A DNA stretch of 64,000 nucleotides from an uncultured Candidatus Saccharibacteria bacterium (GCA_964562675.1 CAZLUG010000002.1:5852-69851), one strand, 5' to 3'. Shown: positions 37,337-49,240, counted from the stretch's first letter. Notes: a model not told the origin generated them from the sequence alone. Translations and numbers: made by a program.

Positions 37337-40300
37337 ATGGATCTTCCAAAACGAGAGGAACAAATTATAAAATTTTGGCAGCAGAGAAAGATTTTCCAAA
37401 AGTCTCTGAAGCAGAACAAAAAGCGGCCTTATTTTAGTTTTTACGATGGGCCTCCTTTTGCTACCGGTTTACCGCATTATGGACACATTCTAGCTTCAAC
37501 CGTTAAAGACACCGTTTTACGTTATTGGTCTCAGCATCGTTATAGAGTTGAGTGGCGAGTGGGGTGGGATTGCCATGGGCTACCAGTAGAGAATCTTATT
37601 GAAAAAGAGTTAGGAGTTAAAACAAAAAAAGAGATTGAAAAGAAAATTGGTGTAGGAAAATTTAATCGAGCTTGCCGAAATTCTGTTTTTCGTTGTGTCA
37701 ACGACTTTCAAAAAATTCTTCAGCGAATAGGGCGATGGGCTGATTATGCAAATGCCTACGCTACTTTAGACCCGAATTACACCGAAAGTGTTTGGTGGGT
37801 TTTTAAAAAATTATTTGATAAAAAACTTATCTATCAGGATTACCGTGTAACTCCTTACTGCCCGCGTTGTGGCACTCCGTTGTCTAACTTTGAAGTTAAC
37901 CTAGGATACAAAAATGTTGAAGATGAATCTATTTACGTAAAATTTGCTCTTTTAGACCAGCCTCAAACTTTCTTTTTAGTTTGGACTACTACTCCCTGGA
38001 CTCTACCAGCTAATCTTGCCATAGCCGTTAACCAAAAATTTGAATATGTAAAAATTCGCCTAGAAAATAATGACAATAATCTTTCTCCTCAATTTCTTAT
38101 CTTGGCGAAAAAGCGGTTGGGCATTATTAAAGGAAATTATAAAATTATAGAAAATTTGTCTGGCCGTAAATTAGTGGGTTTGGCATATTCTCCTCTTTAC
38201 AAATTGAGAAATCATGAATTTAATCTTGAGCAAAAAAACAAAATTTTTAAGGTTGTTCCAGCTGATTTTGTTACCCTAGAGGAAGGGACAGGATTGGTGC
38301 ATATGGCCCCAGCTTTTGGGGAAGACGATCGGCAGGTAGGGAAAAAGTTTAACTTGCCTATTCTTATAACTATCAATTCCGAAGGGTCAATTTTGAAAGG
38401 ATTAGGTATTCCCGGTGAAGGAAAATTTGTTAAAGAAGCAGACAAAGACATTAAAACAGATTTAAAGAAACGAAATTTGCTTTATCGAGCAGAGAAAATT
38501 AAACATATTTATCCATTTTGTTATCGCTGTGATACCCCGCTTTTGTATTATCCCCTAAAAAGCTGGTATTTGAAGGTTACCGATTTTAGAAAACAATTAG
38601 TGGCTAACAACCAAAAAATTAATTGGCGTCCGAATTACTTAAAAAATGGGCGTTTTGGAAAATGGCTGAAAGGAGCAAGAGATTGGTGTTTATCCCGTAA
38701 TCGTTATTGGGGTGCTCCTATTCCTATTTGGGAGTGTTCTCATTGCCAAAAGAAAATAGCTGTTGGTTCAAAACAAGAATTAGGCAGACTAAGTACCACG
38801 TCTAACTTTTATTACCTTTTAAGGCATGGTGAAACTTCCTGCCATCAAAAAGGAATCATTGCCAATGATATTAACCATGATACCTGCCACTTGACTTCAG
38901 CGGGGAAAAAACAAATTCAAGAGGTGGCAAAGAAGTTAAGGAAAGAAAAAATCGATGTTATTTTTGCTTCTGATTTACGGCGCACTAAAGAAACCGCAAA
39001 CATTGTAGCTAAAACTCTTGGCCTAAAGGTAGAATTTTCTCCGAAACTTCGGGATCTGAATGTAGGACTCTACAATGGCCGTAGACTCGATTTTATTAAA
39101 GAACAAGTTTCTTTTGCAAAAAATCCCCAAGAAGCCTTTCCTAAAGGAGAAAGCTTAGTAAGCTGTTGGCAAAGAATGAAAGATGTCTTTCACGATACGG
39201 AGAGCAAATATCAAGGAAAAAAAGTACTAGTCATAGGACACGCCTTTCCCTTAAAATGCTTTGAGGGTATTCTTAAAGGCCATGGTTTATCTGAGGTGAG
39301 AGCAAAGAGAAATTTTGAAGTTGCTGAATTAAAAAAGATTGTCGGCAAAAAATGGCCCTTCAATGAAAGCGGAGAATTTGATTTTCATCGTCCCTACATT
39401 GATGAAGTTACACTCAAGTGTCCGATTTGCCATCATCCAATGAAACGCGTCCCTGAAGTTTTTGATTGCTGGTTTGAATCTGGTTCAATGCCGTATGCTC
39501 AGTGGCATTATCCTTTCAGCCACAAAAAAGTCGTGGAGAAAACTTTTCCCGCCGATTTTATTGCTGAAGGCGTAGACCAAACTCGAGGATGGTTTTATAC
39601 CTTGCATGTTTTAGCTACAGCCTTAACTCTGGAAAATATTGGCTTAGGAAAAAATAAGCCGGCCTTCAAGAATGTCATTGCCCACGGTTTAGTTCTAGGA
39701 GAAGATGGACGAAAGCTCTCTAAACACCTTAAGAATTATTCATCCCCCAATAACATTATCGACCATTACGGAGCTGATGCTTTACGTTTCTTTTTGCTGA
39801 GTTCTACGCCTATTGGACAGGATTATATTTTCTCTCAAAAAAGATTATCAATTACTTTTCGCCAAGTCATTGTAACTCTTTGGAACTCTTGGCAGTTTTT
39901 AAAAACATATTTACCAAAAGGGTTTATTTTGACGCCGAAAATTCAACCCCAAAATATTCTCGACAAATGGATTCTCTCTCGATTAGGTACTTTAGAAATT
40001 GAAATAGAAAAACAAATGAAGGCTTACCAATTGACCAAAGCAACTAGATTAATTGGAGTTTTTATAGATGATTTGTCAAATTGGTATATTCGCCGTTCGC
40101 GAATTAATTTTCAAAAAGAATCGGGAAAAACCGATAAAATAAAATCTGCCAACTTACTGGGTTTTACCTTGCTAAGATTATCCCAAATTTCTGCTCCGTT
40201 TATGCCTTTTTTAAGCGAAATGATTTATCAGTGGTTAAAAGAAAAAGCTCAATGGAAACTTCCCGAATCGGTCCATCTCACTCGTTATCCCGAAAAAGAG

Positions 40301-40834
40301 AAATCGTTTCAAAGCATTGCTCTGGAACGAAAAATGAAATTGGCCCGAGAAATAGTTGCTGAAATTCTTAGCCAGCGCTCTTCGCATAATTTAAAGATTC
40401 GCCAGCCTCTAAGCAAAGTAAGTTTTCCTCTAGATAAACTAAAAAATAAGAAATTGTGGAAAGTGGTGCAAGAAGAGACAAATATCCAAAAAATTGTCTT
40501 TAATCAAAAGCAGAAAGAGAATATTATTCTAGATACCAAACTTACCCCAGAGTTAAAAGAAGCAGGATTTTTAAGGGAGTTTATGCACGATATTCGGTCA
40601 CTGCGCAAAAAGACCGGTTTTAACCGTTTCCAAAAAACCAGCTTGAGTGTTACCGGTAATGAAAAATTTGTCTCTCTTGTCCAGAAAAATCAAGCAATTA
40701 TCCAAAAGGAGACATTATTGCAAGACATCCATTTTCCTCTTAGGGAAAGCGATATTTCTCAACAAGAAACGTACCTCCAAAAAGATTTTATTTTTCTTGA
40801 ATTTCAAGGTAAGATTTACTTGAGGAAGAATTAA
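37337..40834 (+). CDS. ileS: isoleucyl-tRNA synthetase, type 2 (eukaryote-like), carrying an inserted histidine-phosphatase domain
   Basis: Class I aaRS with PPFATGLPHYGHIL (HIGH region) and KLSKHLKNY (KMSKS-like). Type-2 IleRS blocks are WCLSRNRYWGAPIPIW and HRPYIDEVTLKCPICHHPMKRVPEVFDCWFESGSMPYAQ. A ~190-aa insert lies between these two blocks. Confidence 0.93.
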   Translation: MDLPKREEQIIKFWQQRKIFQKSLKQNKKRPYFSFYDGPPFATGLPHYGHILASTVKDTVLRYWSQHRYRVEWRVGWDCHGLPVENLIEKELGVKTKKEIEKKIGVGKFNRACRNSVFRCVNDFQKILQRIGRWADYANAYATLDPNYTESVWWVFKKLFDKKLIYQDYRVTPYCPRCGTPLSNFEVNLGYKNVEDESIYVKFALLDQPQTFFLVWTTTPWTLPANLAIAVNQKFEYVKIRLENNDNNLSPQFLILAKKRLGIIKGNYKIIENLSGRKLVGLAYSPLYKLRNHEFNLEQKNKIFKVVPADFVTLEEGTGLVHMAPAFGEDDRQVGKKFNLPILITINSEGSILKGLGIPGEGKFVKEADKDIKTDLKKRNLLYRAEKIKHIYPFCYRCDTPLLYYPLKSWYLKVTDFRKQLVANNQKINWRPNYLKNGRFGKWLKGARDWCLSRNRYWGAPIPIWECSHCQKKIAVGSKQELGRLSTTSNFYYLLRHGETSCHQKGIIANDINHDTCHLTSAGKKQIQEVAKKLRKEKIDVIFASDLRRTKETANIVAKTLGLKVEFSPKLRDLNVGLYNGRRLDFIKEQVSFAKNPQEAFPKGESLVSCWQRMKDVFHDTESKYQGKKVLVIGHAFPLKCFEGILKGHGLSEVRAKRNFEVAELKKIVGKKWPFNESGEFDFHRPYIDEVTLKCPICHHPMKRVPEVFDCWFESGSMPYAQWHYPFSHKKVVEKTFPADFIAEGVDQTRGWFYTLHVLATALTLENIGLGKNKPAFKNVIAHGLVLGEDGRKLSKHLKNYSSPNNIIDHYGADALRFFLLSSTPIGQDYIFSQKRLSITFRQVIVTLWNSWQFLKTYLPKGFILTPKIQPQNILDKWILSRLGTLEIEIEKQMKAYQLTKATRLIGVFIDDLSNWYIRRSRINFQKESGKTDKIKSANLLGFTLLRLSQISAPFMPFLSEMIYQWLKEKAQWKLPESVHLTRYPEKEKSFQSIALERKMKLAREIVAEILSQRSSHNLKIRQPLSKVSFPLDKLKNKKLWKVVQEETNIQKIVFNQKQKENIILDTKLTPELKEAGFLREFMHDIRSLRKKTGFNRFQKTSLSVTGNEKFVSLVQKNQAIIQKETLLQDIHFPLRESDISQQETYLQKDFIFLEFQGKIYLRKN
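38807..39300 (+). other. embedded histidine phosphatase (PGAM/His_Phos_1-like) domain within ileS
   Basis: Catalytic RHG motif YYLLRHGETSCHQ (codons at 38810-38833). An Arg motif is in ASDLRRTKETANIV. The second catalytic His is in KKVLVIGHAFPLKCF. The domain length is ~165 aa. Confidence 0.7.
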
Positions 40835-40926: not shown

Positions 40927-41472
40927 ATGAAAAAATGGTTAAAGTTCCTATTAATTTTCCTTATTATTTTGGCAATTTCAGTTATCGTTTTGGCTTTTAT
41001 TGGTTCTAAAGGGGGAAAACTATCTCCTAATATTTTTCACCTTAATAAAGGAACAAAGAAAACTCCCCTCAATGAAGTAGTTGTAGATAATGTAAGGTTC
41101 AAATTGGTTTCTTTAAAAAACCTTGGCAGTGTTCTCCAGGGGAAAGATGCTCCTTATCTAAAAAGGATAAGCAACTTGCAGGCCGAAGGAAAATTTCTGG
41201 AAATTACTTTATCAGCGGAAAATTTAGGCACTACTTCCCAGCCATATTGGTTTGTCTCTTATCTTGTTGACGGAGAAGGAAAGCAGTTACGTACAGGCTG
41301 GAAAGCCGAAAGCTGGATTCCTCAAAATGATGAATGCTATGGGAGGCTTGATCCAGGAAAGGCGCCGAAAATTTGTAAGAAAATTTTCGATGTCCCCTTA
41401 GACGCAGCTGGTCTAAAGTTAAAGGTGGAAGTTGGCCTTAAATACAATGGTTTGTTGAATTTGGGAATATAA
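40927..41472 (+). CDS. hypothetical secreted/membrane-anchored protein (DUF4352-like pattern, tentative)
   Basis: N-terminal TM/signal WLKFLLIFLIILAISVIVLAFIG, followed by a ~150-aa beta-rich domain. Confidence 0.4.
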   Translation: MKKWLKFLLIFLIILAISVIVLAFIGSKGGKLSPNIFHLNKGTKKTPLNEVVVDNVRFKLVSLKNLGSVLQGKDAPYLKRISNLQAEGKFLEITLSAENLGTTSQPYWFVSYLVDGEGKQLRTGWKAESWIPQNDECYGRLDPGKAPKICKKIFDVPLDAAGLKLKVEVGLKYNGLLNLGI

Positions 41473-41567: not shown

Positions 41568-42773
41568 ATGTTGAATGGATTACAAACGGAGAAGATATTT
41601 ACGGTCAGCGAATTTATTTCTCTCCTAAATAGAATTTTGTTGCCCCAGAGAGCGATTGTTCAAGGAGAGGTGGGAAAGATGAGTCAAAGAGCTAGCTATA
41701 CATTTTTCCCGCTTCGTGATAAGCAAAAACAAGAGACTTTAAATTGTTTTGTCTGGCAGGATAAGTTGGAATATTTTGGGACTACTCTCAAAGAGGGGAT
41801 GGAAATAAAAGTTGAAGGTTTCCCAGCTATCTTTCGCCGTACCGGAAGTTTAAATTTTCAAGTAGAACAGATTGCGTTGGTAGGAGAAGGAGCCCTAAAA
41901 CAGGCTTTTGAAGCTTTAAAAAGAAAACTTAAAGAACTTGGCTATTTTTCTTTAGAGCATAAAAAGGTCATTCCTCGATTTTCGCAAAAGATAGGACTTA
42001 TTACTTCTCGTTTTGCCGCTGCAAAAACTGATTTTCTTGAGCATCTCGGCAAATTCAGCTTCGAAATTTATTTTTATGATGTCAGAGTTGAGGGAATAAG
42101 AGCAGTAGATGATATTATTAGGGCTATCCGTTGGTTTAATGAAAATATGTCTGACATTGATGTTCTCGTTATAACTCGTGGCGGAGGAAGTTGGGAAAGC
42201 CTGCAAGCTTTTAACTCGGAAATGGTTGCCAGAGCTATTTTTGCCTCAAAGATTCCTATTATTGCGGGGGTAGGTCATGAGGTAGATGAAACAATTGCTG
42301 GTTTTATAGCTGATAAAAGAGCATCAACTCCCACCCATGCTGCTCGAATCTTAAGTGATCCTTGGAAATTAGCCCGAGAATTAGTTGCAGAAGCCAAAGA
42401 AAATATTTTTTCCGCTTTAGCAAAATCCCGCCGTAATTATCAAATCCGCCTCAATAATATTTTTGCCCAAAATCTTTCTCTGTTTCGGGAAGCTCTCAGA
42501 AGGAACAATAAAGAGTTATCACAAAAAACTGTTCAGCTTTTTCAAAATTATTCACATTGGCTGGGAAGGCTAAAAAACACCTTAGATCAATATCAGGAAA
42601 AACTGATTCTTTCCAGCCCCCAACTGAAACTTAAGCAGGGTTATAGTATTGTTTTTAATCAAAAAGGTGAAATTCTTAAAAGAGCAGATGAGCTGAAACT
42701 TGGAGAAGAAATGACAACTATATTCTATCGCGGGAAGGCTAAATCAGAAGTAAAGAAATTAATCGATAAATAG
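41568..42773 (+). CDS. xseA: exodeoxyribonuclease VII large subunit
   Basis: N-terminal OB fold (IVQGEVGKMSQRASYTFFPLRDKQ...LNCFVWQ) and central catalytic region (GLITSRFAAAKTDF...VITRGGGSWESL). Confidence 0.9.
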   Translation: MLNGLQTEKIFTVSEFISLLNRILLPQRAIVQGEVGKMSQRASYTFFPLRDKQKQETLNCFVWQDKLEYFGTTLKEGMEIKVEGFPAIFRRTGSLNFQVEQIALVGEGALKQAFEALKRKLKELGYFSLEHKKVIPRFSQKIGLITSRFAAAKTDFLEHLGKFSFEIYFYDVRVEGIRAVDDIIRAIRWFNENMSDIDVLVITRGGGSWESLQAFNSEMVARAIFASKIPIIAGVGHEVDETIAGFIADKRASTPTHAARILSDPWKLARELVAEAKENIFSALAKSRRNYQIRLNNIFAQNLSLFREALRRNNKELSQKTVQLFQNYSHWLGRLKNTLDQYQEKLILSSPQLKLKQGYSIVFNQKGEILKRADELKLGEEMTTIFYRGKAKSEVKKLIDK

Positions 42774-42870
42774 TTTTTCTTCATAGACATAATATAGGTT
42801 TCGCAAATTAGTTTTAAGAAACTTGGAAATTTAAAGGGATTCTGTGTATTATTTTAATCATTAAGCAAAT

Positions 42871-43077
42871 ATGCCTACTGCAAAAAATAAAATAAATTTT
42901 AATGAAGCTTTTGCTGAACTTGAAGAAATTAATCAATGGTTTCAGCAGGAAAATATCGATTTAGACGAAGGCTTGAAAAAATTCAAGAGAGGCATGGAAC
43001 TTATAAATCTTTGCAAAAAAAGATTAACCGAAGTTGATAATAAGTTTCAAGAAGTTAAAAAAGAATTCTCAGACTAA
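42871..43077 (+). CDS. xseB: exodeoxyribonuclease VII small subunit
   Basis: 68-aa helical protein with FNEAFAELEEINQWFQQENIDLDEGLKKFKRGMELINLCKKRL, which is XseB-like. It immediately follows xseA. Confidence 0.85.
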   Translation: MPTAKNKINFNEAFAELEEINQWFQQENIDLDEGLKKFKRGMELINLCKKRLTEVDNKFQEVKKEFSD

Positions 43078-43078
43078 A

Positions 43079-46030
43079 ATGCCTAGAAAACTTAATTTGG
43101 CCCAAAAAAAAGCCGTCCACTTTAATGAAGGGCCTCTTTTAGTAGTTGCGGGCGCTGGAACTGGGAAAACAACGGTTATTACTCAACGTTTAGCATATTT
43201 AGTGAAAAACAAGAAAGCGAAAGCCAATGAGGTGCTTGCTTTAACTTTTACCGAGAAAGCCGTCGAGGAAATGGAAAATAGAATAGACGACTTGCTTTCT
43301 TCAAGCTACTTGGACCTTTGGATTTCAACATTTCATTCATTTTGTGAAAGAATCCTCCGTGATAACGCTTTTGATATAGGTCTCAGTCCGAATTTCAAAG
43401 TTCTTAATCAAACTTCATCTTGGCTTTTAGTGAGACAGAATATCAAAAGATTTAGATTGAATTATTACCGGCCTTTGGGGAACCCTTCTAGATTTATTTT
43501 TGCCCTTTTGAAACACTTTTCCCGATGCAAAGATGAAGGAATTTATCCTGAAAATTACTTGGAATTTGCCGAAAATTTCAAGGGCCTAAATTCTCAACTT
43601 AAAGAAGAAAAAGCTAGAATTAAAGAAGTAGCGAAAGCCTACGCTGATTATCAAAATTTGCTTTTAGAGAAAGGTTTTTTGGATTTTGGTGATTTAATAA
43701 ATTATACCTTAAAGGTTTTTCGCCAACGGAAAACTATTTTAGAACATTATCAAAAACAATTTAAATATATCTTAATTGATGAGTTTCAGGACACAAACTG
43801 GGCTCAATATGAATTGATAAAATTATTAGCTCTGCCAAAAAACAATCTCACGGTTTGCGCCGATGACGACCAATCTATTTATCTTTTTAGGGGAGCTTCT
43901 TTTAATAACGTTTTAAGGTTTCGCAAAGATTACCCAAAAGCCAAAGAGATTGTTTTAACCAAAAATTATCGTTCGACACAGAATATTCTTGACCTAGCCT
44001 ATAAATTTATCCAATTAAATAATCCGAATAGGCTTGAATACCAATTGAATAAAGACCGAGAAATTCTTCGTAAGGCAAAAGATAAGGGTGTAGATTTATC
44101 ACATTTTAAGAAAATAGACAAAAAACTTAAAGCCGTCACTGCTAAAAAGGGTATTATCAAATATCTTCACTTTGAGAGTTTAGCCAAGGAAGCCCAAGGT
44201 GTAGCTGAAGAAATTATTAAGATTTACCAGAAAGATTCTAAGACAAAATTAAGTGATTTCGTTGTTTTGGTGAGAGCCAATAAAAGCGCCCAGCCATTTT
44301 GCCAGGCTTTTAGTAAAGCTAATATTCCTTATCAATTTTTAGCACTAAAAGGGCTTTACCAAAAATCAGTAATTATTGACGTCATTTCTTATTTTAAGCT
44401 CTTAGATAATTACCATGAAGGACCTGCTTGTTATAGAGTTTTGAATTTACCTCATTGGGAAATTTCCCCAAAAGACATTTCAAAAATTATTTTTTCAAGC
44501 AGAATGCGCGCTCAATCTATCTATGAAACTCTTCTCAGGGTTGACACAATTAAGGATTTAAGCAAAAAAACAGTTTTGGCGGTGAAGCGCTTATTAAAAC
44601 TTCTTAAGAAACATTCTAAACTAGCGCGAGAGGGGAGTGTCAGTGAAGTTTTCACCGCATTTTTAGAAGACTCCGGCTATTTAAAGTACTTGGCTAAACA
44701 AAATAACCAGAAAAGCCGGGAGAGTTTAGAATATCTCGAGCAATTTTATGATAAAATTAAACTCTTTGAAGCTAGCGAGATAGATTCTCATTTAAGCAGT
44801 TTTAGGCAACAAATAGAATGGGAAATCGAAGCAGGGGAGGAAGGTTCACTAAAATTTGATGCATATTCTGAAAAAAATGCCGTTAAAATTATGACAATCC
44901 ATGCCGCTAAGGGACTAGAATTCAAATATGTTTTTTTAGTTAGCTTGGTGGATAAACATTTCCCAACAATTGCCGTTAAAGAACCTATTGAAATTCCAGA
45001 ACCTTTAATTAAAGAAGTTATTCCCAAAGGAGACATCCATTTGCAAGAAGAAAGAAGATTATTTTATGTTGGTTTAACTCGAGCAAAAAGGGGAATTTTC
45101 CTAACTTCCGGAGAAGATTACGGAGGACAAAGAAGAAAAAAGATATCAAGGTTTCTCCAAGAGCTTGGTTTTAAAGGGAAAATTCGAAAGAAAGCAGAAC
45201 CGAAACTTTCTTTCGAAAACAAAAATGCGTTTAAAAAAGATAAATCTTTTTCGTTCCGGAGAAAAATAAAAATTTCTCACCTTTCTTACACTCAGCTTGC
45301 CGCTTTTGAAAAATGTCCGCTCCAGTATAAATTTGCTCACATCTTAAAAATTCCCGTCAAAGGGAAAGCTTCTTTTACTTTTGGCAAGGTAATGCACCAC
45401 ACCCTTTTTGAGTTTGTTTCTTTGGCTAGCGAAAAGATAAAAAATCGCCAGCCAATTCCTCCATTTCGCAGCCTTCTTGAATTTTATAATAAAAATTGGC
45501 TGAACCAATGGTATTTAGACAGAGAACAACGTTCCGACTACAAAAAGTTAGGCGAAAAATCCTTAAGGAAATTTTACAAAGATTTTGCAAGTGAAAAGCC
45601 AATGATAAAATTTATTGATGAAAAGCCATTTTTAGAGAGAGGCTTCAATTTAAAAATGGGAAGTTATCACTTAACTGGTCAAATTGACCGCATCGATGAA
45701 TTAGAAGATGGGGAAGTAGAGATTATTGATTACAAAACGGGAAATCCAAAAAAAGCGCTTTCAAGAGAAGATAAAGAACAATTGTTAATTTATCAAATGG
45801 CGGTTGAAAATATTTTGGGATTAAAAATAAAAAGGCTTACTTACTATTATCTTAACAACAACCAAACGATTTCTTTTTTAGGAACTCAGAAAGAAAAAGA
45901 GTCTCTGAGACAAAAAATTTTGGCGGAAGCCAAAAAAATTGAATCTGGAAAATTTTCCCCTCATCCAGGATGGCAATGCCAATATTGTGACTTTCGGGAA
46001 ATATGCGAATTTAGGGAAAATCATCAATAA
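43079..46030 (+). CDS. UvrD/PcrA-family helicase fused to C-terminal Cas4/AddB-type Fe-S PD-(D/E)xK nuclease
   Basis: The ATG at 43079 abuts the xseB stop; the ORF-track start is an upstream TTG. Helicase motifs include Walker A GAGTGKTT, DEFQDTN, and the motif VI region VGLTRAK. The C-terminus has EKCPLQY (N-Cys), GQIDRIDELEDGEVEIIDYKTG (D...E-x-K), QLLIYQMAVE (QxxxY) and CQYCDFREIC (C-x2-C-x5-C). Confidence 0.85.
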   Translation: MPRKLNLAQKKAVHFNEGPLLVVAGAGTGKTTVITQRLAYLVKNKKAKANEVLALTFTEKAVEEMENRIDDLLSSSYLDLWISTFHSFCERILRDNAFDIGLSPNFKVLNQTSSWLLVRQNIKRFRLNYYRPLGNPSRFIFALLKHFSRCKDEGIYPENYLEFAENFKGLNSQLKEEKARIKEVAKAYADYQNLLLEKGFLDFGDLINYTLKVFRQRKTILEHYQKQFKYILIDEFQDTNWAQYELIKLLALPKNNLTVCADDDQSIYLFRGASFNNVLRFRKDYPKAKEIVLTKNYRSTQNILDLAYKFIQLNNPNRLEYQLNKDREILRKAKDKGVDLSHFKKIDKKLKAVTAKKGIIKYLHFESLAKEAQGVAEEIIKIYQKDSKTKLSDFVVLVRANKSAQPFCQAFSKANIPYQFLALKGLYQKSVIIDVISYFKLLDNYHEGPACYRVLNLPHWEISPKDISKIIFSSRMRAQSIYETLLRVDTIKDLSKKTVLAVKRLLKLLKKHSKLAREGSVSEVFTAFLEDSGYLKYLAKQNNQKSRESLEYLEQFYDKIKLFEASEIDSHLSSFRQQIEWEIEAGEEGSLKFDAYSEKNAVKIMTIHAAKGLEFKYVFLVSLVDKHFPTIAVKEPIEIPEPLIKEVIPKGDIHLQEERRLFYVGLTRAKRGIFLTSGEDYGGQRRKKISRFLQELGFKGKIRKKAEPKLSFENKNAFKKDKSFSFRRKIKISHLSYTQLAAFEKCPLQYKFAHILKIPVKGKASFTFGKVMHHTLFEFVSLASEKIKNRQPIPPFRSLLEFYNKNWLNQWYLDREQRSDYKKLGEKSLRKFYKDFASEKPMIKFIDEKPFLERGFNLKMGSYHLTGQIDRIDELEDGEVEIIDYKTGNPKKALSREDKEQLLIYQMAVENILGLKIKRLTYYYLNNNQTISFLGTQKEKESLRQKILAEAKKIESGKFSPHPGWQCQYCDFREICEFRENHQ

Positions 46031-46037
46031 CAAAAAA

Positions 46038-46706
46038 CTATTTTATCGTGCGCCATTCAATGTCAGAATCCTTGCCGGCAAACTCCAACCATTGGCCTTC
46101 AGGGTCAATGACGTACCATTTCTTGCGTGTTTGCGACCAAACCATAGGATTGCCATCGTAAAATGGTTTTTTTACTACATCTTTTGGTTTTAATTTATCA
46201 AGCTCTAGCCATTTTTTAAACACCGTCTCGATAGCATAATCCAAATTACGGGATTTCGCCCATTTAGATACTTTTAATATAGCTTTTTTTGCCATTTCTA
46301 CCGACCCCGCTAATTCTAAAAGCTGTTTTGCGGGTCGGGTAAATCTTGAATAAATTATCTTTCTTTTCGAAGCATTTTCCTTCAGCTGTTCTAAGCTTAT
46401 TTCCTTAGTTTTAAAATAATAGGTAACGATTTGGCGGATAGCGGTTTCTTTTTTTAAGTCTTGATAATACTTTATTTTTCCAGTTTTGAGATATTCTTCA
46501 ATTTTTACAGCAATACTTTTCCCGATTCCGGGAATATCCTTCAAACCTTTTATTCCTTTCTCTTTCAAAATAACGGAAACATCTGATTTCAATGAATTCA
46601 AAGATTCCGCCGCTATTTTATACGCTTTTGGTTTATAAGGTATGCCCTTAATAAGTAAAAGTTCCGATATCTCAGATAATATTTTAGCTATTTCCTGGTT
46701 TTTCAT
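46038..46706 (-). CDS. HhH DNA-binding protein resembling the N-terminal (8-kDa/lyase + fingers) region of family-X polymerases, without polymerase domain
   Basis: NQEIAKILSEISELLLIKGIPYKPKAYKIAAESL resembles the PolX N-terminal helix bundle. An HhH-GIG motif is present (IPGIGKSIAVKIEEYLKTGKI). The ~90-aa C-terminal part is unassigned. Confidence 0.5.
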   Translation of the reverse strand: MKNQEIAKILSEISELLLIKGIPYKPKAYKIAAESLNSLKSDVSVILKEKGIKGLKDIPGIGKSIAVKIEEYLKTGKIKYYQDLKKETAIRQIVTYYFKTKEISLEQLKENASKRKIIYSRFTRPAKQLLELAGSVEMAKKAILKVSKWAKSRNLDYAIETVFKKWLELDKLKPKDVVKKPFYDGNPMVWSQTRKKWYVIDPEGQWLEFAGKDSDIEWRTIK

Positions 46707-46728: not shown

Positions 46729-47250
46729 TTATGAAAATTTTTCAACTTTGAATTTGTAAACTATGATTCTTCCAAAACGGGGATCAATTCCTCCTTTTTG
46801 GCAGGCAATACTAATTTGTTTTTCAATTGTGTCCACCCCTTTTAAATTCGGCAGTAAGAGGCCGCTCTGAAGGGGGTTATCAGCACTTTTGACAATCACT
46901 CCATATTTTTTGGGGTCTAATTCCTTGAGATTGCTAACTTGTTCTGGAGGACTTAATATTGAAACCTCATAGTTCAGATAGGGCAATTCACTGACTTTTA
47001 GGGGTTGAAATCGGTAATCTTTGGCAGCGGCGGCAATAGCGCTATGGATAAGTTCTTGAGCAATATTTTTTTGGGTAGGTAAATATGTTCCCACGCATCC
47101 GCGCAATTGGCCTTTTTTCTCTAGAGTCACAAAAACACCTGCTTTCTTTTCTAGAAACTCTTTAGGTAGGTTAGAAGGGGGAAGTATAATTTTCCCTTCT
47201 TTCAGGTAATTTTCTATAGCTTCTTTGGCTAGTTGGATGAGAGGATGCAT
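46729..47250 (-). CDS. AMMECR1-domain protein (AmmeMemoRadiSam system protein A)
   Basis: Signature LRGCVGT (AMMECR1 LRGCIG motif), ~170 aa. Confidence 0.8.
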   Translation of the reverse strand: MHPLIQLAKEAIENYLKEGKIILPPSNLPKEFLEKKAGVFVTLEKKGQLRGCVGTYLPTQKNIAQELIHSAIAAAAKDYRFQPLKVSELPYLNYEVSILSPPEQVSNLKELDPKKYGVIVKSADNPLQSGLLLPNLKGVDTIEKQISIACQKGGIDPRFGRIIVYKFKVEKFS

Positions 47251-47282
47251 AAATTTTCTAATTTTGTTAAGAGGACGGACTG

Positions 47283-47597
47283 TTAATTTTGATTTTTTAA
47301 TTTTTCTATTATCTCTTTTATCCTTTTAGCTTCTTCTTTTACTACTTCGCTTGAATATTCGGCTGAATGGCTGGGCGCGTTTTGATAAATAGGCTTTTTT
47401 TGGTCCAAGTGTAAATTAAAAATCAAAATACCGTTTCCTTCCTTAAGGTAAATATGGAATCGGGGATATCTATTGCCCCCCAGAGGACGGATACAATTTA
47501 TTTCATCTTCTTTCTTTCCTAAAAAATAATAGCCGATTCTCTTTATAATAGTGTAAATATTTTCTTTTAATGACTCTTGAGAGATAATAAGTCTCAT
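47283..47597 (-). CDS. small hypothetical protein inserted between AMMECR1 and Memo-like genes
   Basis: A 104-aa ORF with tight spacing to its neighbours (its start codon directly abuts the upstream gene's stop; ~32 nt to the downstream gene). I recognised no domain. Confidence 0.35.
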   Translation of the reverse strand: MRLIISQESLKENIYTIIKRIGYYFLGKKEDEINCIRPLGGNRYPRFHIYLKEGNGILIFNLHLDQKKPIYQNAPSHSAEYSSEVVKEEAKRIKEIIEKLKNQN

Positions 47598-47598
47598 G

Positions 47599-48219
47599 TT
47601 AGTTGAGAAATTTAAAATTTGCTACTAAATAGCCAACTCCAAAAGGTCCTTCGTAAGATAAAATTTCTGGCTGCCAGTTTAATTTTTCTCCAGTTAAAAT
47701 ACCTAGCAAAAAAGAAAAAGAACGCAATCCGCAATCCGCTGCTTGGGGATAAATATCATCTAAGTTCAAAATTTTTTCTATATCTTTTCTTTTTAGGCTT
47801 TCTAAAAGGGCTTTATCAAATTTTGGGCCATCGGGCTGAAACCCGTATGGGCCGTCTTCTTTTAAGCAATGTGATAAATCACCCGAAGCAACCAAAGCGT
47901 ATTTTTTATCTTTCTCAAGCGAGCGAGCTATTTCCTTTCCTTTATTAAAATAGAATTTCGGCGGCTCAAAACCCGTTAAGAGAGTTTTTATTTCTCCTTT
48001 AAAGTTAGGGGTAATAAAATACAATGGTACTTTAAACCCCCAATCCAAATGAGGCGAAGATATTATTAAAATATCTGGCTTTTTTTGTGCGAGCTCCTTG
48101 TTAAGTTTTTTTAAACCTGCAATGGTTTTTTTAACTTTTTCTCTGTCCTCTTTAGAACCTACTGATGGCAGTAAGATCGGGGGATGGGGAGAAAAACAAG
48201 CAAAAGTAATCATATACAC
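47599..48219 (-). CDS. Memo/LigB-like protein (AmmeMemoRadiSam system protein B), apparently N-terminally short
   Basis: FSPHPPILLP and ASGDLSHCL motifs fit the Memo-family metal site. It is 206 aa against ~260-280 aa for the family. Confidence 0.6.
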   Translation of the reverse strand: MYMITFACFSPHPPILLPSVGSKEDREKVKKTIAGLKKLNKELAQKKPDILIISSPHLDWGFKVPLYFITPNFKGEIKTLLTGFEPPKFYFNKGKEIARSLEKDKKYALVASGDLSHCLKEDGPYGFQPDGPKFDKALLESLKRKDIEKILNLDDIYPQAADCGLRSFSFLLGILTGEKLNWQPEILSYEGPFGVGYLVANFKFLN

Positions 48220-48223
48220 TAAT

Positions 48224-49240
48224 CTAGTTTATAATATGTAAATTTTCTTTGCACTTTGAACAATATCCATGATTGTCATAACGGATAACTTGATATCCTT
48301 CCCGCTTAATCATTAAACTGCCGCATCGCGGGCAATAAGTACTTTGGTGTTTAAAATCATCAATGACATTTCCGATATAAACAAATTTTAATCCCGCTTT
48401 TTTGGCAATTTTGTATGCCTCCAAAAGAGTTGCTTTGGGAGTAGGGGAAACATCATTCATTTTATAAGCCGGGAAAAAAGCAGAAAGATGCCAGGGAATA
48501 TTAGGATTGATATTATAAATAAATTTAGCGATTTGATGAAACTCTTTAGACGAATCATTAAAATTAGGGATAATCAAAGTTGTTATTTCTTCCCAGACAC
48601 CAAGTTTATGCACTCTTTTAATGGTTTCTTTAACGGGTTCTAATTTTGCTTTGACAATTTCCTTGTAGAATTTTTCAGAAAATGACTTTAAGTCAATATT
48701 AATTGCATCTAAATAAGGGTGAATAAGTTCTAGGGCTTCTTTTGATTCGTATCCATTTGATACCCAGACATTTTTAATGCCAGCTTCTCTTGCTAATTTC
48801 ATTGTATCTAAAGCGTATTCTAAAAAGACAGTTGGTTCGTTGTAAGTATAAGCAATAGTTGGAATTTGCTGAGTTTTACAATATTGGACAATTTCTTGAG
48901 GGGCTAATTCTTTGCTTAGTTTTGGAATAATTTCTGGATTTTTTTGGGCTGTTTGCGAAATTTCCCAATTTTGGCAAAAATTACACCCAAAATTACACCC
49001 ATAGGTACCAAAAGATAAAACTTGACTGCCTGGCTTAAAATGAAAGAGTGGTTTTTTCTCAATTGGGTCAATGTTCAATGTAGCAGCTTTCCCATAAACT
49101 AAAGAATAAAGTTTTCCTCCAATATTTTTTCTTACTCCGCAAATTCCCGTTTTCCCTTCCGGCAATACGCAGTAATGGGCGCAATTTCTGCATTGAATCT
49201 TCTTTCCAGAGAGTTTTTTATAAAGATAAGCTTCTTTCAT
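48224..49240 (-). CDS. AmmeMemoRadiSam system radical SAM enzyme
   Basis: Radical SAM CNFGCNFC (C-x3-C-x2-C). An N-terminal auxiliary Cys cluster CRNCAHYC...C is present and a C-terminal CPRCG...CSKC. It lies in an operon with the Memo-like and AMMECR1 genes. Confidence 0.85.
   Translation of the reverse strand: MKEAYLYKKLSGKKIQCRNCAHYCVLPEGKTGICGVRKNIGGKLYSLVYGKAATLNIDPIEKKPLFHFKPGSQVLSFGTYGCNFGCNFCQNWEISQTAQKNPEIIPKLSKELAPQEIVQYCKTQQIPTIAYTYNEPTVFLEYALDTMKLAREAGIKNVWVSNGYESKEALELIHPYLDAINIDLKSFSEKFYKEIVKAKLEPVKETIKRVHKLGVWEEITTLIIPNFNDSSKEFHQIAKFIYNINPNIPWHLSAFFPAYKMNDVSPTPKATLLEAYKIAKKAGLKFVYIGNVIDDFKHQSTYCPRCGSLMIKREGYQVIRYDNHGYCSKCKENLHIIN

Follow-up and report, generated by a model that had tools for sequence, protein, structure and literature searches.

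Positions 41568-46030 of a 64,000-nucleotide stretch of DNA from an uncultured Candidatus Saccharibacteria bacterium (GCA_964562675.1, CAZLUG010000002.1:5852-69851; hereafter the window, from whose first letter all positions are counted) encode the two subunits of exonuclease VII (ExoVII), XseA and XseB, followed by a protein in which a UvrD-type helicase is fused to a Cas4-like nuclease. The key result of our analysis is that these three bona fide DNA-repair genes are probably chance neighbours in a single lineage of the Patescibacteria, or candidate phyla radiation (CPR), rather than parts of a conserved or selected module. The locus consists of ordinary, correctly annotated genes of known kinds, namely a canonical ExoVII and a helicase-nuclease of a type that has already been catalogued. 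The initial annotation of this locus had instead proposed a compact DNA-end resection module, and had named gene order in related genomes beforehand as an observation on which this proposal would stand or fall. The genes and the sequence between them are listed below.

41568-42773, plus strand: xseA, ExoVII large subunit, 401 amino acids (open reading frame map, Pfam, NCBIfam)
42774-42870, plus strand: spacer of 97 nucleotides between xseA and xseB (raw sequence)
42871-43077, plus strand: xseB, ExoVII small subunit, 68 amino acids (TIGR01280, 53.5 bits against a cut-off of 35; Pfam Exonuc_VII_S, E 5.5e-15)
43075-43081, plus strand: xseB stop and helicase start, TAA-A-ATG (stop 43075-43077, spacer base 43078, ATG 43079-43081)
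43079-46030, plus strand: UvrD-type superfamily 1A (SF1A) helicase with Cas4-like PD-(D/E)XK nuclease, 983 amino acids (Pfam architecture)

Gene order in relatives

Searching the GTDB representatives, one genome for each species, with an alignment of the helicase-nuclease family gave 80 loci. They come from many Patescibacteria lineages as well as from Aminicenantes, Chloroflexota, Acidobacteriota, Omnitrophota and others, and residues ~5-976 of the protein are matched in nearly all of them. The XseA and XseB sequences of the window were compared by phmmer with all six-frame open reading frames (ORFs) of these 80 loci. xseA was found in two of them only, L003 and L022, where the xseA-xseB pair follows the helicase on the same strand at a distance of 2-5 kb. 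An xseAB pair upstream of the helicase-nuclease, as in the window, was seen in none of the 57 species loci for which 2 kb or more of the upstream DNA is available, and in none of the five nearest relatives (55-64% identity) in a large protein collection. The converse scan, centred on XseA, was thin and returned only four loci; none of three metagenome loci had a helicase-nuclease within 6 kb of xseA-xseB. Taken together, the helicase-centred scans, the nearest-relative look-ups and the XseA-centred scans lead us to reject a conserved xseAB-helicase operon, and with these counts (0 of 57, 0 of 5 and 0 of 3) the proposal of a compact end-resection module is not supported.

The closest relative, P0002, whose helicase-nuclease is 64% identical, indicates how the present arrangement came about. 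It keeps the string of genes found downstream of the helicase in the window (HHH_8, AMMECR1, LigB/Memo and radical SAM), while its upstream gene encodes an AAA_14/DUF4143 ATPase. As the downstream side is kept and the upstream side is changed, the breakpoint of a rearrangement is placed at the helicase gene's 5' end, and the closeness of xseB and the helicase would then reflect genome compaction after this local rearrangement. The number of co-occurrences is also near to what chance would give: with 14-kb windows and genomes of ~1 Mb, about one is expected in 80 loci, and two were seen, or three when the present window is counted.

Several points weigh against this conclusion. Three DNA-end-processing genes in a row, the last two separated by a single nucleotide, are suggestive, and both L003 and L022 carry xseAB within 5 kb of the helicase on the same strand. 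A weak and evolutionarily labile linkage between xseAB and the helicase could therefore exist. In addition, no biochemical characterisation of any member of the UvrD-Cas4 fusion family was found in the searched literature, and for this reason the mechanism of the fusion is drawn from its homology with AddAB, AdnAB and RecB.

Spacing and transcription signals

The gene coordinates and the 1-nucleotide gap between xseB and the helicase, as first annotated, agree with both the ORF map and the raw sequence. From this junction the two genes are predicted to be co-transcribed, which we consider likely, and the translational coupling that had been claimed for them is possible. Likely co-transcription does not by itself point to joint function. 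Spacings of 5 nucleotides or less occur in 8 of the 56 co-directional neighbour pairs of the window, and the functionally unrelated genes holB (DNA polymerase III delta') and frr (ribosome recycling factor) overlap by 8 nucleotides. Because tight spacing is this common here, including between unrelated genes, the junction is weak evidence for a link. The wider surroundings are of a housekeeping kind, with a ribosomal protein operon, a murA-like gene, mreB, holB, frr and ileS.

The helicase start has no Shine-Dalgarno sequence. The same is true of most genes in the window, so its absence is uninformative with regard to coupling; xseA, with an AAGGAG 7 nucleotides 5' of its start, is among the few exceptions. 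One promoter-like match lies in the 97-nucleotide spacer between xseA and xseB (42823-42852, TTGGAA-18-TATTAT) and is no better than chance: the scan gave 20 promoter-like sites compared with 19.0 +/- 4.4 in shuffled sequence, and neither the promoter-like nor the terminator-like matches exceeded their shuffled controls in number. The scan gave no plus-strand terminator in this spacer and no terminator-like site between the three genes.

These signals bear on a lineage-specific version of the module, in which ExoVII and the helicase-nuclease would be made from one transcript, the helicase would unwind DNA from a nick or an end, and ExoVII would degrade the displaced single-stranded DNA (ssDNA) together with the nuclease of the fusion. 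The shared strand, the stop/start junction and the lack of a terminator-like site between the genes would suit such an arrangement, as would the apparently intact catalytic residues of all three enzymes and the two loci with xseAB 2-5 kb away on the same strand. There is also a parallel in the mismatch-repair excision of Escherichia coli, where UvrD-type helicases work together with ExoVII, an enzyme that can also stand in for RecJ. However, no other locus that we examined has the arrangement, not even that of the nearest relative at 64% identity, tight spacing joins unrelated genes in this genome, and the 97-nucleotide gap before xseB may contain a promoter of its own. ExoVII is, moreover, a bidirectional ssDNA exonuclease that degrades 5' and 3' tails alike, and is no obvious partner for an enzyme that makes a 3' substrate for RecA. 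We therefore regard a lineage-specific module as unlikely, and chance adjacency as the better account of the locus.

Exonuclease VII

Both ExoVII subunits score above their equivalog cut-offs, and by this measure xseA and xseB encode a canonical ExoVII, in agreement with the initial annotation. XseA scores 323.7 bits against TIGR00237 (cut-off 180) in an alignment that spans positions 6-389 of the 389 in the model, and matches Pfam Exonuc_VII_L (E 9e-64) and tRNA_anti_2, corresponding to an N-terminal oligonucleotide-binding (OB) fold followed by the catalytic domain. The catalytic motifs RGGG and GHEVD are found at residues 204 and 236. The adjacency and order of xseA and xseB are those of many Gram-positive bacteria, and in comparison with ExoVII of E. 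coli and Firmicutes the downstream neighbour alone is different, there being otherwise nothing of note.

Upstream of xseA, at 40927-41472 on the plus strand, lies a gene for a 181-amino acid predicted membrane or secreted protein, which has no Pfam or NCBIfam match and resembles phrog_806, a phage family without assigned function (E 9e-11).

The helicase motor

In the public annotation the helicase gene begins at an upstream TTG at position 43034, which gives a protein of 998 amino acids and would overlap xseB by 44 nucleotides. The N-termini of 24 homologues fit the ATG at 43079 instead, the closest of them beginning MVEKLNKEQ compared with MPRKLNLAQ here. The 983-amino acid protein that starts at this ATG matches three Pfam families in turn, UvrD-helicase at residues 5-286 (E 1e-79), UvrD_C at residues 291-677 (E 3e-48) and PDDEXK_1 at residues 734-977 (E 2e-35). 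Its parts are placed as follows.

43091-45109, plus strand: helicase motor, residues 5-677 (alignment columns, motif blocks)
45164-45283, plus strand: variable basic linker of low model confidence, approximately residues 696-735, joining the nuclease to the motor
45278-46009, plus strand: Cas4/AddB-type PD-(D/E)XK nuclease, residues 734-977 (PDDEXK_1, PF12705, 123 bits against a cut-off of 22)
45314-45316, 45977-45979, 45986-45988 and 46004-46006, plus strand: cysteine codons of the nuclease

Pfam and the alignment of motifs both bear out the full SF1 UvrD/PcrA core that had been proposed. Motif I reads AGAGTGKT (K30), motif II DEFQD (residues 234-238) and motif III DDDQSIYLFRGAS, with F270 at the pawl position; motifs IV (NYRS), V (TIHAAKGLEF) and VI (RRLFYVGLTRA) follow, and the 2B insert is present. 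The complete SF1A set, Q, I, Ia, II, III, IV, V and VI, is intact and invariant in an alignment of 25 homologues with 54-64% identity. The pawl position itself switches between tryptophan and phenylalanine across the family, and AdnB carrying the substitution W325F retains 90% of its resection velocity (PMC8789073). Given F270, the alternation of the two residues and the AdnB result, the motor of the fusion is expected to be active.

The structural model (AlphaFold2, mean predicted local distance difference test score, pLDDT, of 79.4) falls below 50 at residues 702-728, within the linker, whose length and sequence also differ among homologues, and is low around the cysteine loops of the nuclease. 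By Foldseek the model matched PcrA, UvrD and Rep over the motor, at E ~1e-44 and 27-33% identity (32-33% to PcrA structures), and AddA, AdnB, AdnA, AddB and RecB over its full length (4cej_A, 6ppr_B, 7sjr_A, 3u4q_B and 1w36_B, at E 1e-26 to 1e-42).

The motor's closest relatives in both sequence and structure are therefore PcrA, UvrD and Rep, with which it shares all helicase motifs. These proteins differ from the fusion in having no nuclease domain, and the fusion scores below their equivalog cut-offs (pcrA 484.8 compared with 911 bits, uvrD 367 with 1144, rep 404 with 951).

The nuclease domain

The RecB/Cas4-type nuclease suggested for the C-terminus is borne out, and the catalytic D/E/K residues are present. 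These comprise E853, the motif IDRID (D870, R871, D873), the motif IIDYK (D884, Y885, K886) and the motif QLLIY (Q901, Y905), all invariant in the 25 homologues. The nuclease motifs of AdnB also align to this domain. Exactly four cysteines are found in it, C746 and the group C967-x2-C970-x5-C976, which is the Cys...C-x2-C-x5-C pattern first described for the locus, and all four are likewise invariant. By their arrangement these cysteines are predicted to bind an iron-sulfur (Fe-S) cluster, and the low model confidence around their loops would be expected when the cofactor is absent from the prediction.

Among solved structures, the nuclease domain by itself finds its best match in PDB 9iab (E 2e-5), with which it shares the CxxCx5C tail; 9iab is probably the cyanobacterial Argonaute-associated protein ACE1. 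Fold, motifs and the C...CxxCx5C cluster ligands are common to the Cas4 family, including 9iab and SSO0001 of Sulfolobus (4ic1). Cas4 family proteins are nevertheless stand-alone proteins of ~200-280 amino acids that accompany Cas1/Cas2 or a prokaryotic Argonaute (pAgo), whereas the fusion has neither a CRISPR nor a pAgo context. The match to the cas4 model TIGR00372 (61.3 bits) is slightly below the cut-off of 65, and no cas1 or cas2 gene is present among the annotated genes around the locus or in its relatives. On these two counts we do not class the fusion as a CRISPR Cas4 proper.

The family of UvrD-Cas4-like fusions

Fusions of a UvrD helicase with a Cas4-like nuclease form the largest branch of pfam12705, and their helicase part is monophyletic (Hudaiberdiev et al. 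2017, BMC Evol Biol 17:232, PMC5704561). They either have Dcm/Vsr or type III restriction-modification genes as neighbours or stand alone, often in contexts that are not conserved, and are predicted to act like RecB/AddB nucleases (PMC5704561). The protein described here has the same N-terminal UvrD-like SF1 helicase and C-terminal Cas4-like nuclease with Fe-S cysteines, and is assigned to this group by its architecture. It differs in its surroundings, where the published type III restriction-modification and Dcm/Vsr contexts are replaced by housekeeping and recombination genes.

The family is large and is abundant in Patescibacteria. At least 8000 homologues of the helicase-nuclease were found, all at E 1e-10 or better, and the best 120 share its architecture. 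The nuclease domain alone matches at least 6349 representatives of 50%-identity clusters at E <=1e-3, and among the matches listed it is nearly always C-terminal. The searched literature yielded no paper on the recombination gene repertoire of the CPR (Patescibacteria).

Two groups of homologues depart from the usual length. Eight proteins of 1300-1430 amino acids (P0005, P0009, P0010, P0032, P0047, P0100, P0117 and P0118) contain intein/Hint domains (PF14890, PF01079). In three others of 1050-1300 amino acids (P0241, P0242 and P0244) the nuclease domain is matched in 4-5 separate stretches at ~29% identity, and a Cas4-like nuclease domain may be repeated several times along these proteins.

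Comparison with AddAB, AdnAB and RecBCD

To place the fusion among the known end-resection enzymes we compared it with the two kinds of subunit found in them. AddB and AddA split their work as AdnA and AdnB do. In AdnAB the leading motor is AdnB, whose nuclease is fed the 3' tracking strand. The Fe-S cluster is part of AdnA, with the cluster subdomain at the fork, and the displaced 5' strand is cut by the nuclease of AdnA (PMC8789073). Like the fusion, AdnA and AddB have a RecB-type nuclease with an Fe-S subdomain placed after a motor, or motor-like domain, of the UvrD kind, and the Foldseek alignments of the model to both extend over more than 1000 columns. Sequence identity to them is only 13-16%, however, and each is the non-driving half of an obligate heterodimer, with its partner encoded beside it, whereas in the fusion all motor motifs are intact and no gene for a paralogous helicase-nuclease partner adjoins it in any of the 86 loci of the neighbourhood analysis described below.

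AddA, AdnB and RecB provide the other half of the comparison, as each has an active SF1A motor of 3'-to-5' polarity with a C-terminal PD-(D/E)XK nuclease carried on a linker, and the template modelling score (TM-score) normalised to AdnB is 0.69-0.72. They differ from the fusion in that the Fe-S cluster of AdnAB and AddAB sits in the partner subunit (AdnA or AddB), and in that all three work within multi-subunit complexes. The fusion also scores far below the equivalog cut-offs of these families (addA_Gpos 218 compared with 708, recB 159 with 696, addB_alphas 35 with 487). Membership in the heteromeric AddAB, AdnAB or RecBCD complexes thus fails on the scores and on the missing partner gene, even though the overall fold matches. 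By analogy, a mode of action like that of AddAB, AdnAB and RecBCD remains the best reading of how the fusion would work.

Neighbours of the fusion

We clustered the neighbouring genes of 86 loci all against all, with family scans to separate RuvB from RarA/MgsA, and found no universal partner gene across these loci. A gene of the RmuC family lies within 450 bp of the fusion and on the same strand in ten loci (L026, L033-L036, L041, L066, L069, L071 and L075), and in the wider neighbourhood in three more. RuvB is encoded 4 nucleotides downstream on the same strand in two loci (L010 and L019), and RarA/MgsA is close by in several (L006, L007 and L054). None of RmuC, RuvB or RarA/MgsA is encoded in the present window. 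No gene for a paired helicase-nuclease partner was seen beside the fusion in any of the 86 loci, where the second helicase-like ORFs are plain PcrA-like helicases only.

Such a plain PcrA-like gene (550-660 amino acids) lies 1-5 kb downstream of the fusion, in convergent orientation, in six related genomes (L026, L030, L040, L041, L050 and L075). Two of these plain genes were scored with the PcrA model and gave 650 and 761 bits, compared with 485 for the fusion. The presence of a separate, more PcrA-like gene in the six relatives makes the fusion a diverged paralogue there. Often one or two genes of the FemAB family stand between the fusion and the plain PcrA-like gene.

This finding is the main obstacle to a different view of the protein, according to which it would be the organism's housekeeping PcrA/UvrD orthologue with a nuclease tail, serving nucleotide excision repair, mismatch repair, removal of RecA or replication as an accessory helicase, with the ExoVII adjacency mirroring excision by UvrD and an exonuclease. 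That view has the motor's best family and structure matches on its side, together with the lack of a second UvrD-like gene within the window and the inteins of some homologues, which are typical of important conserved proteins. The shortfall of the fusion against the PcrA equivalog cut-off and the plain PcrA-like gene beside it in six genomes leave this view quite improbable.

A role in defence, with the fusion acting as an accessory that degrades invading DNA, is more improbable still, and we give it very little credence. It is suggested by the part of the family whose published neighbours are Dcm/Vsr or type III restriction-modification genes (PMC5704561), and GajB in PADLOC and phage helicase and exonuclease profiles in PHROGs match the domains of the fusion. 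Yet the PADLOC matches (GajB and RTasHel) are to the generic UvrD core, with no nuclease-specific defence model among them, and the PHROGs families are generic as well. No restriction-modification, Dcm or Vsr gene was seen at this locus or in the 86 relatives, where the neighbours are housekeeping or recombination genes. The recurrence of recombination neighbours, the housekeeping character of the window and the generic nature of the PADLOC matches therefore support a role in recombination or repair better than one in defence.

The convergent operon

The gene that follows the helicase lies on the opposite strand and is the last of a convergent string.

46038-46706, minus strand: PolX 8-kDa-like helix-hairpin-helix (HhH) protein, 222 amino acids (HHH_8, E 8e-16), outside the helicase unit
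46729-49240, minus strand: string of radical SAM, Memo/LigB, ORF104 and AMMECR1 genes, convergent to the helicase, with the HhH protein gene as its last gene

The description of this neighbour as resembling the N-terminal part of PolX without a polymerase domain was correct. Only residues 1-88 match the PolX 8-kDa domain (residues 1-88 of Thermus thermophilus PolX, E 7e-11), there is no polymerase palm, and Foldseek returned only the N-terminal parts of PolX-family proteins. The C-terminal half consists of helices and a small beta sheet and has no assigned family. Neither this protein nor XseA or XseB has a PADLOC match.

The HhH protein has 3718 homologues, of which the best 120 are all of ~222 amino acids and share 70-79% identity. 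In CPR bacteria of the Parcubacteria type this extreme conservation, at 70-79% identity, extends over hundreds of homologues. In relatives (L081 and L087-L090) its gene always directly follows AMMECR1 and is itself followed by fmt and efp, and the helicase adjoins it only here and in P0002. Since the HhH gene is tied to the AMMECR1 operon in this way, a functional link with the helicase was rejected. The association hints instead that the enigmatic AMMECR1-Memo-radical SAM system includes a protein that binds nucleic acids.

The Memo/LigB and AMMECR1 genes are separated by a small ORF of 97-104 amino acids (47283-47597, minus strand), which has no family match and recurs in L087 (4043-4336) and L089 (5140-5433). 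On the other side of the locus, ileS (37337-40834, plus strand, 1165 amino acids) encodes an isoleucyl-tRNA synthetase with a complete His_Phos_1 domain (residues 493-656, E 9e-33), which sits inside the class I catalytic domain and splits it into two stretches.

Role of the fusion

The mechanism that we propose for the fusion follows from its relatives. The PcrA/UvrD-type SF1A motor would hydrolyse ATP, track along one strand, presumably in the 3'-to-5' direction, and unwind the duplex. The linker of ~40 residues would act as a flexible tether for the Fe-S-type nuclease (AddB/AdnA/Cas4-like), which would cut the unwound ssDNA, possibly with a preference for one strand. The protein would then be a single-chain processing enzyme at ends, gaps or stalled forks, with a probable role in recombinational repair. 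ExoVII from the same region could trim the ssDNA products; nothing indicates a dedicated partnership between the two.

A more specific possibility is that in Patescibacteria the fusion is a self-sufficient, single-chain enzyme for the resection of double-strand breaks. It would combine a lead motor of the AddA/AdnB kind with the Fe-S "wedge" nuclease that elsewhere belongs to the partner subunit, replace RecBCD, AddAB and AdnAB, and work with whichever factor is at hand, ExoVII here and RmuC, RuvB or RarA in other genomes. We put this forward tentatively and regard it as doubtful.

The adjacency of xseAB and the helicase itself matters little, as ExoVII is a textbook enzyme, fusions of this architecture were already on record in 2017 and the gene order was seen just once. 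The value that remains lies in a very large family of fusions, spread across diverse Patescibacteria lineages among the loci examined, of which the searched literature describes no member biochemically. For the question of single-chain resection, the RmuC, RuvB and RarA neighbours offer a better comparative lead than the adjacency to ExoVII. If a one-chain substitute for AddAB and RecBCD does operate in these reduced genomes, the fusion would define a minimal bacterial end-resection machine.

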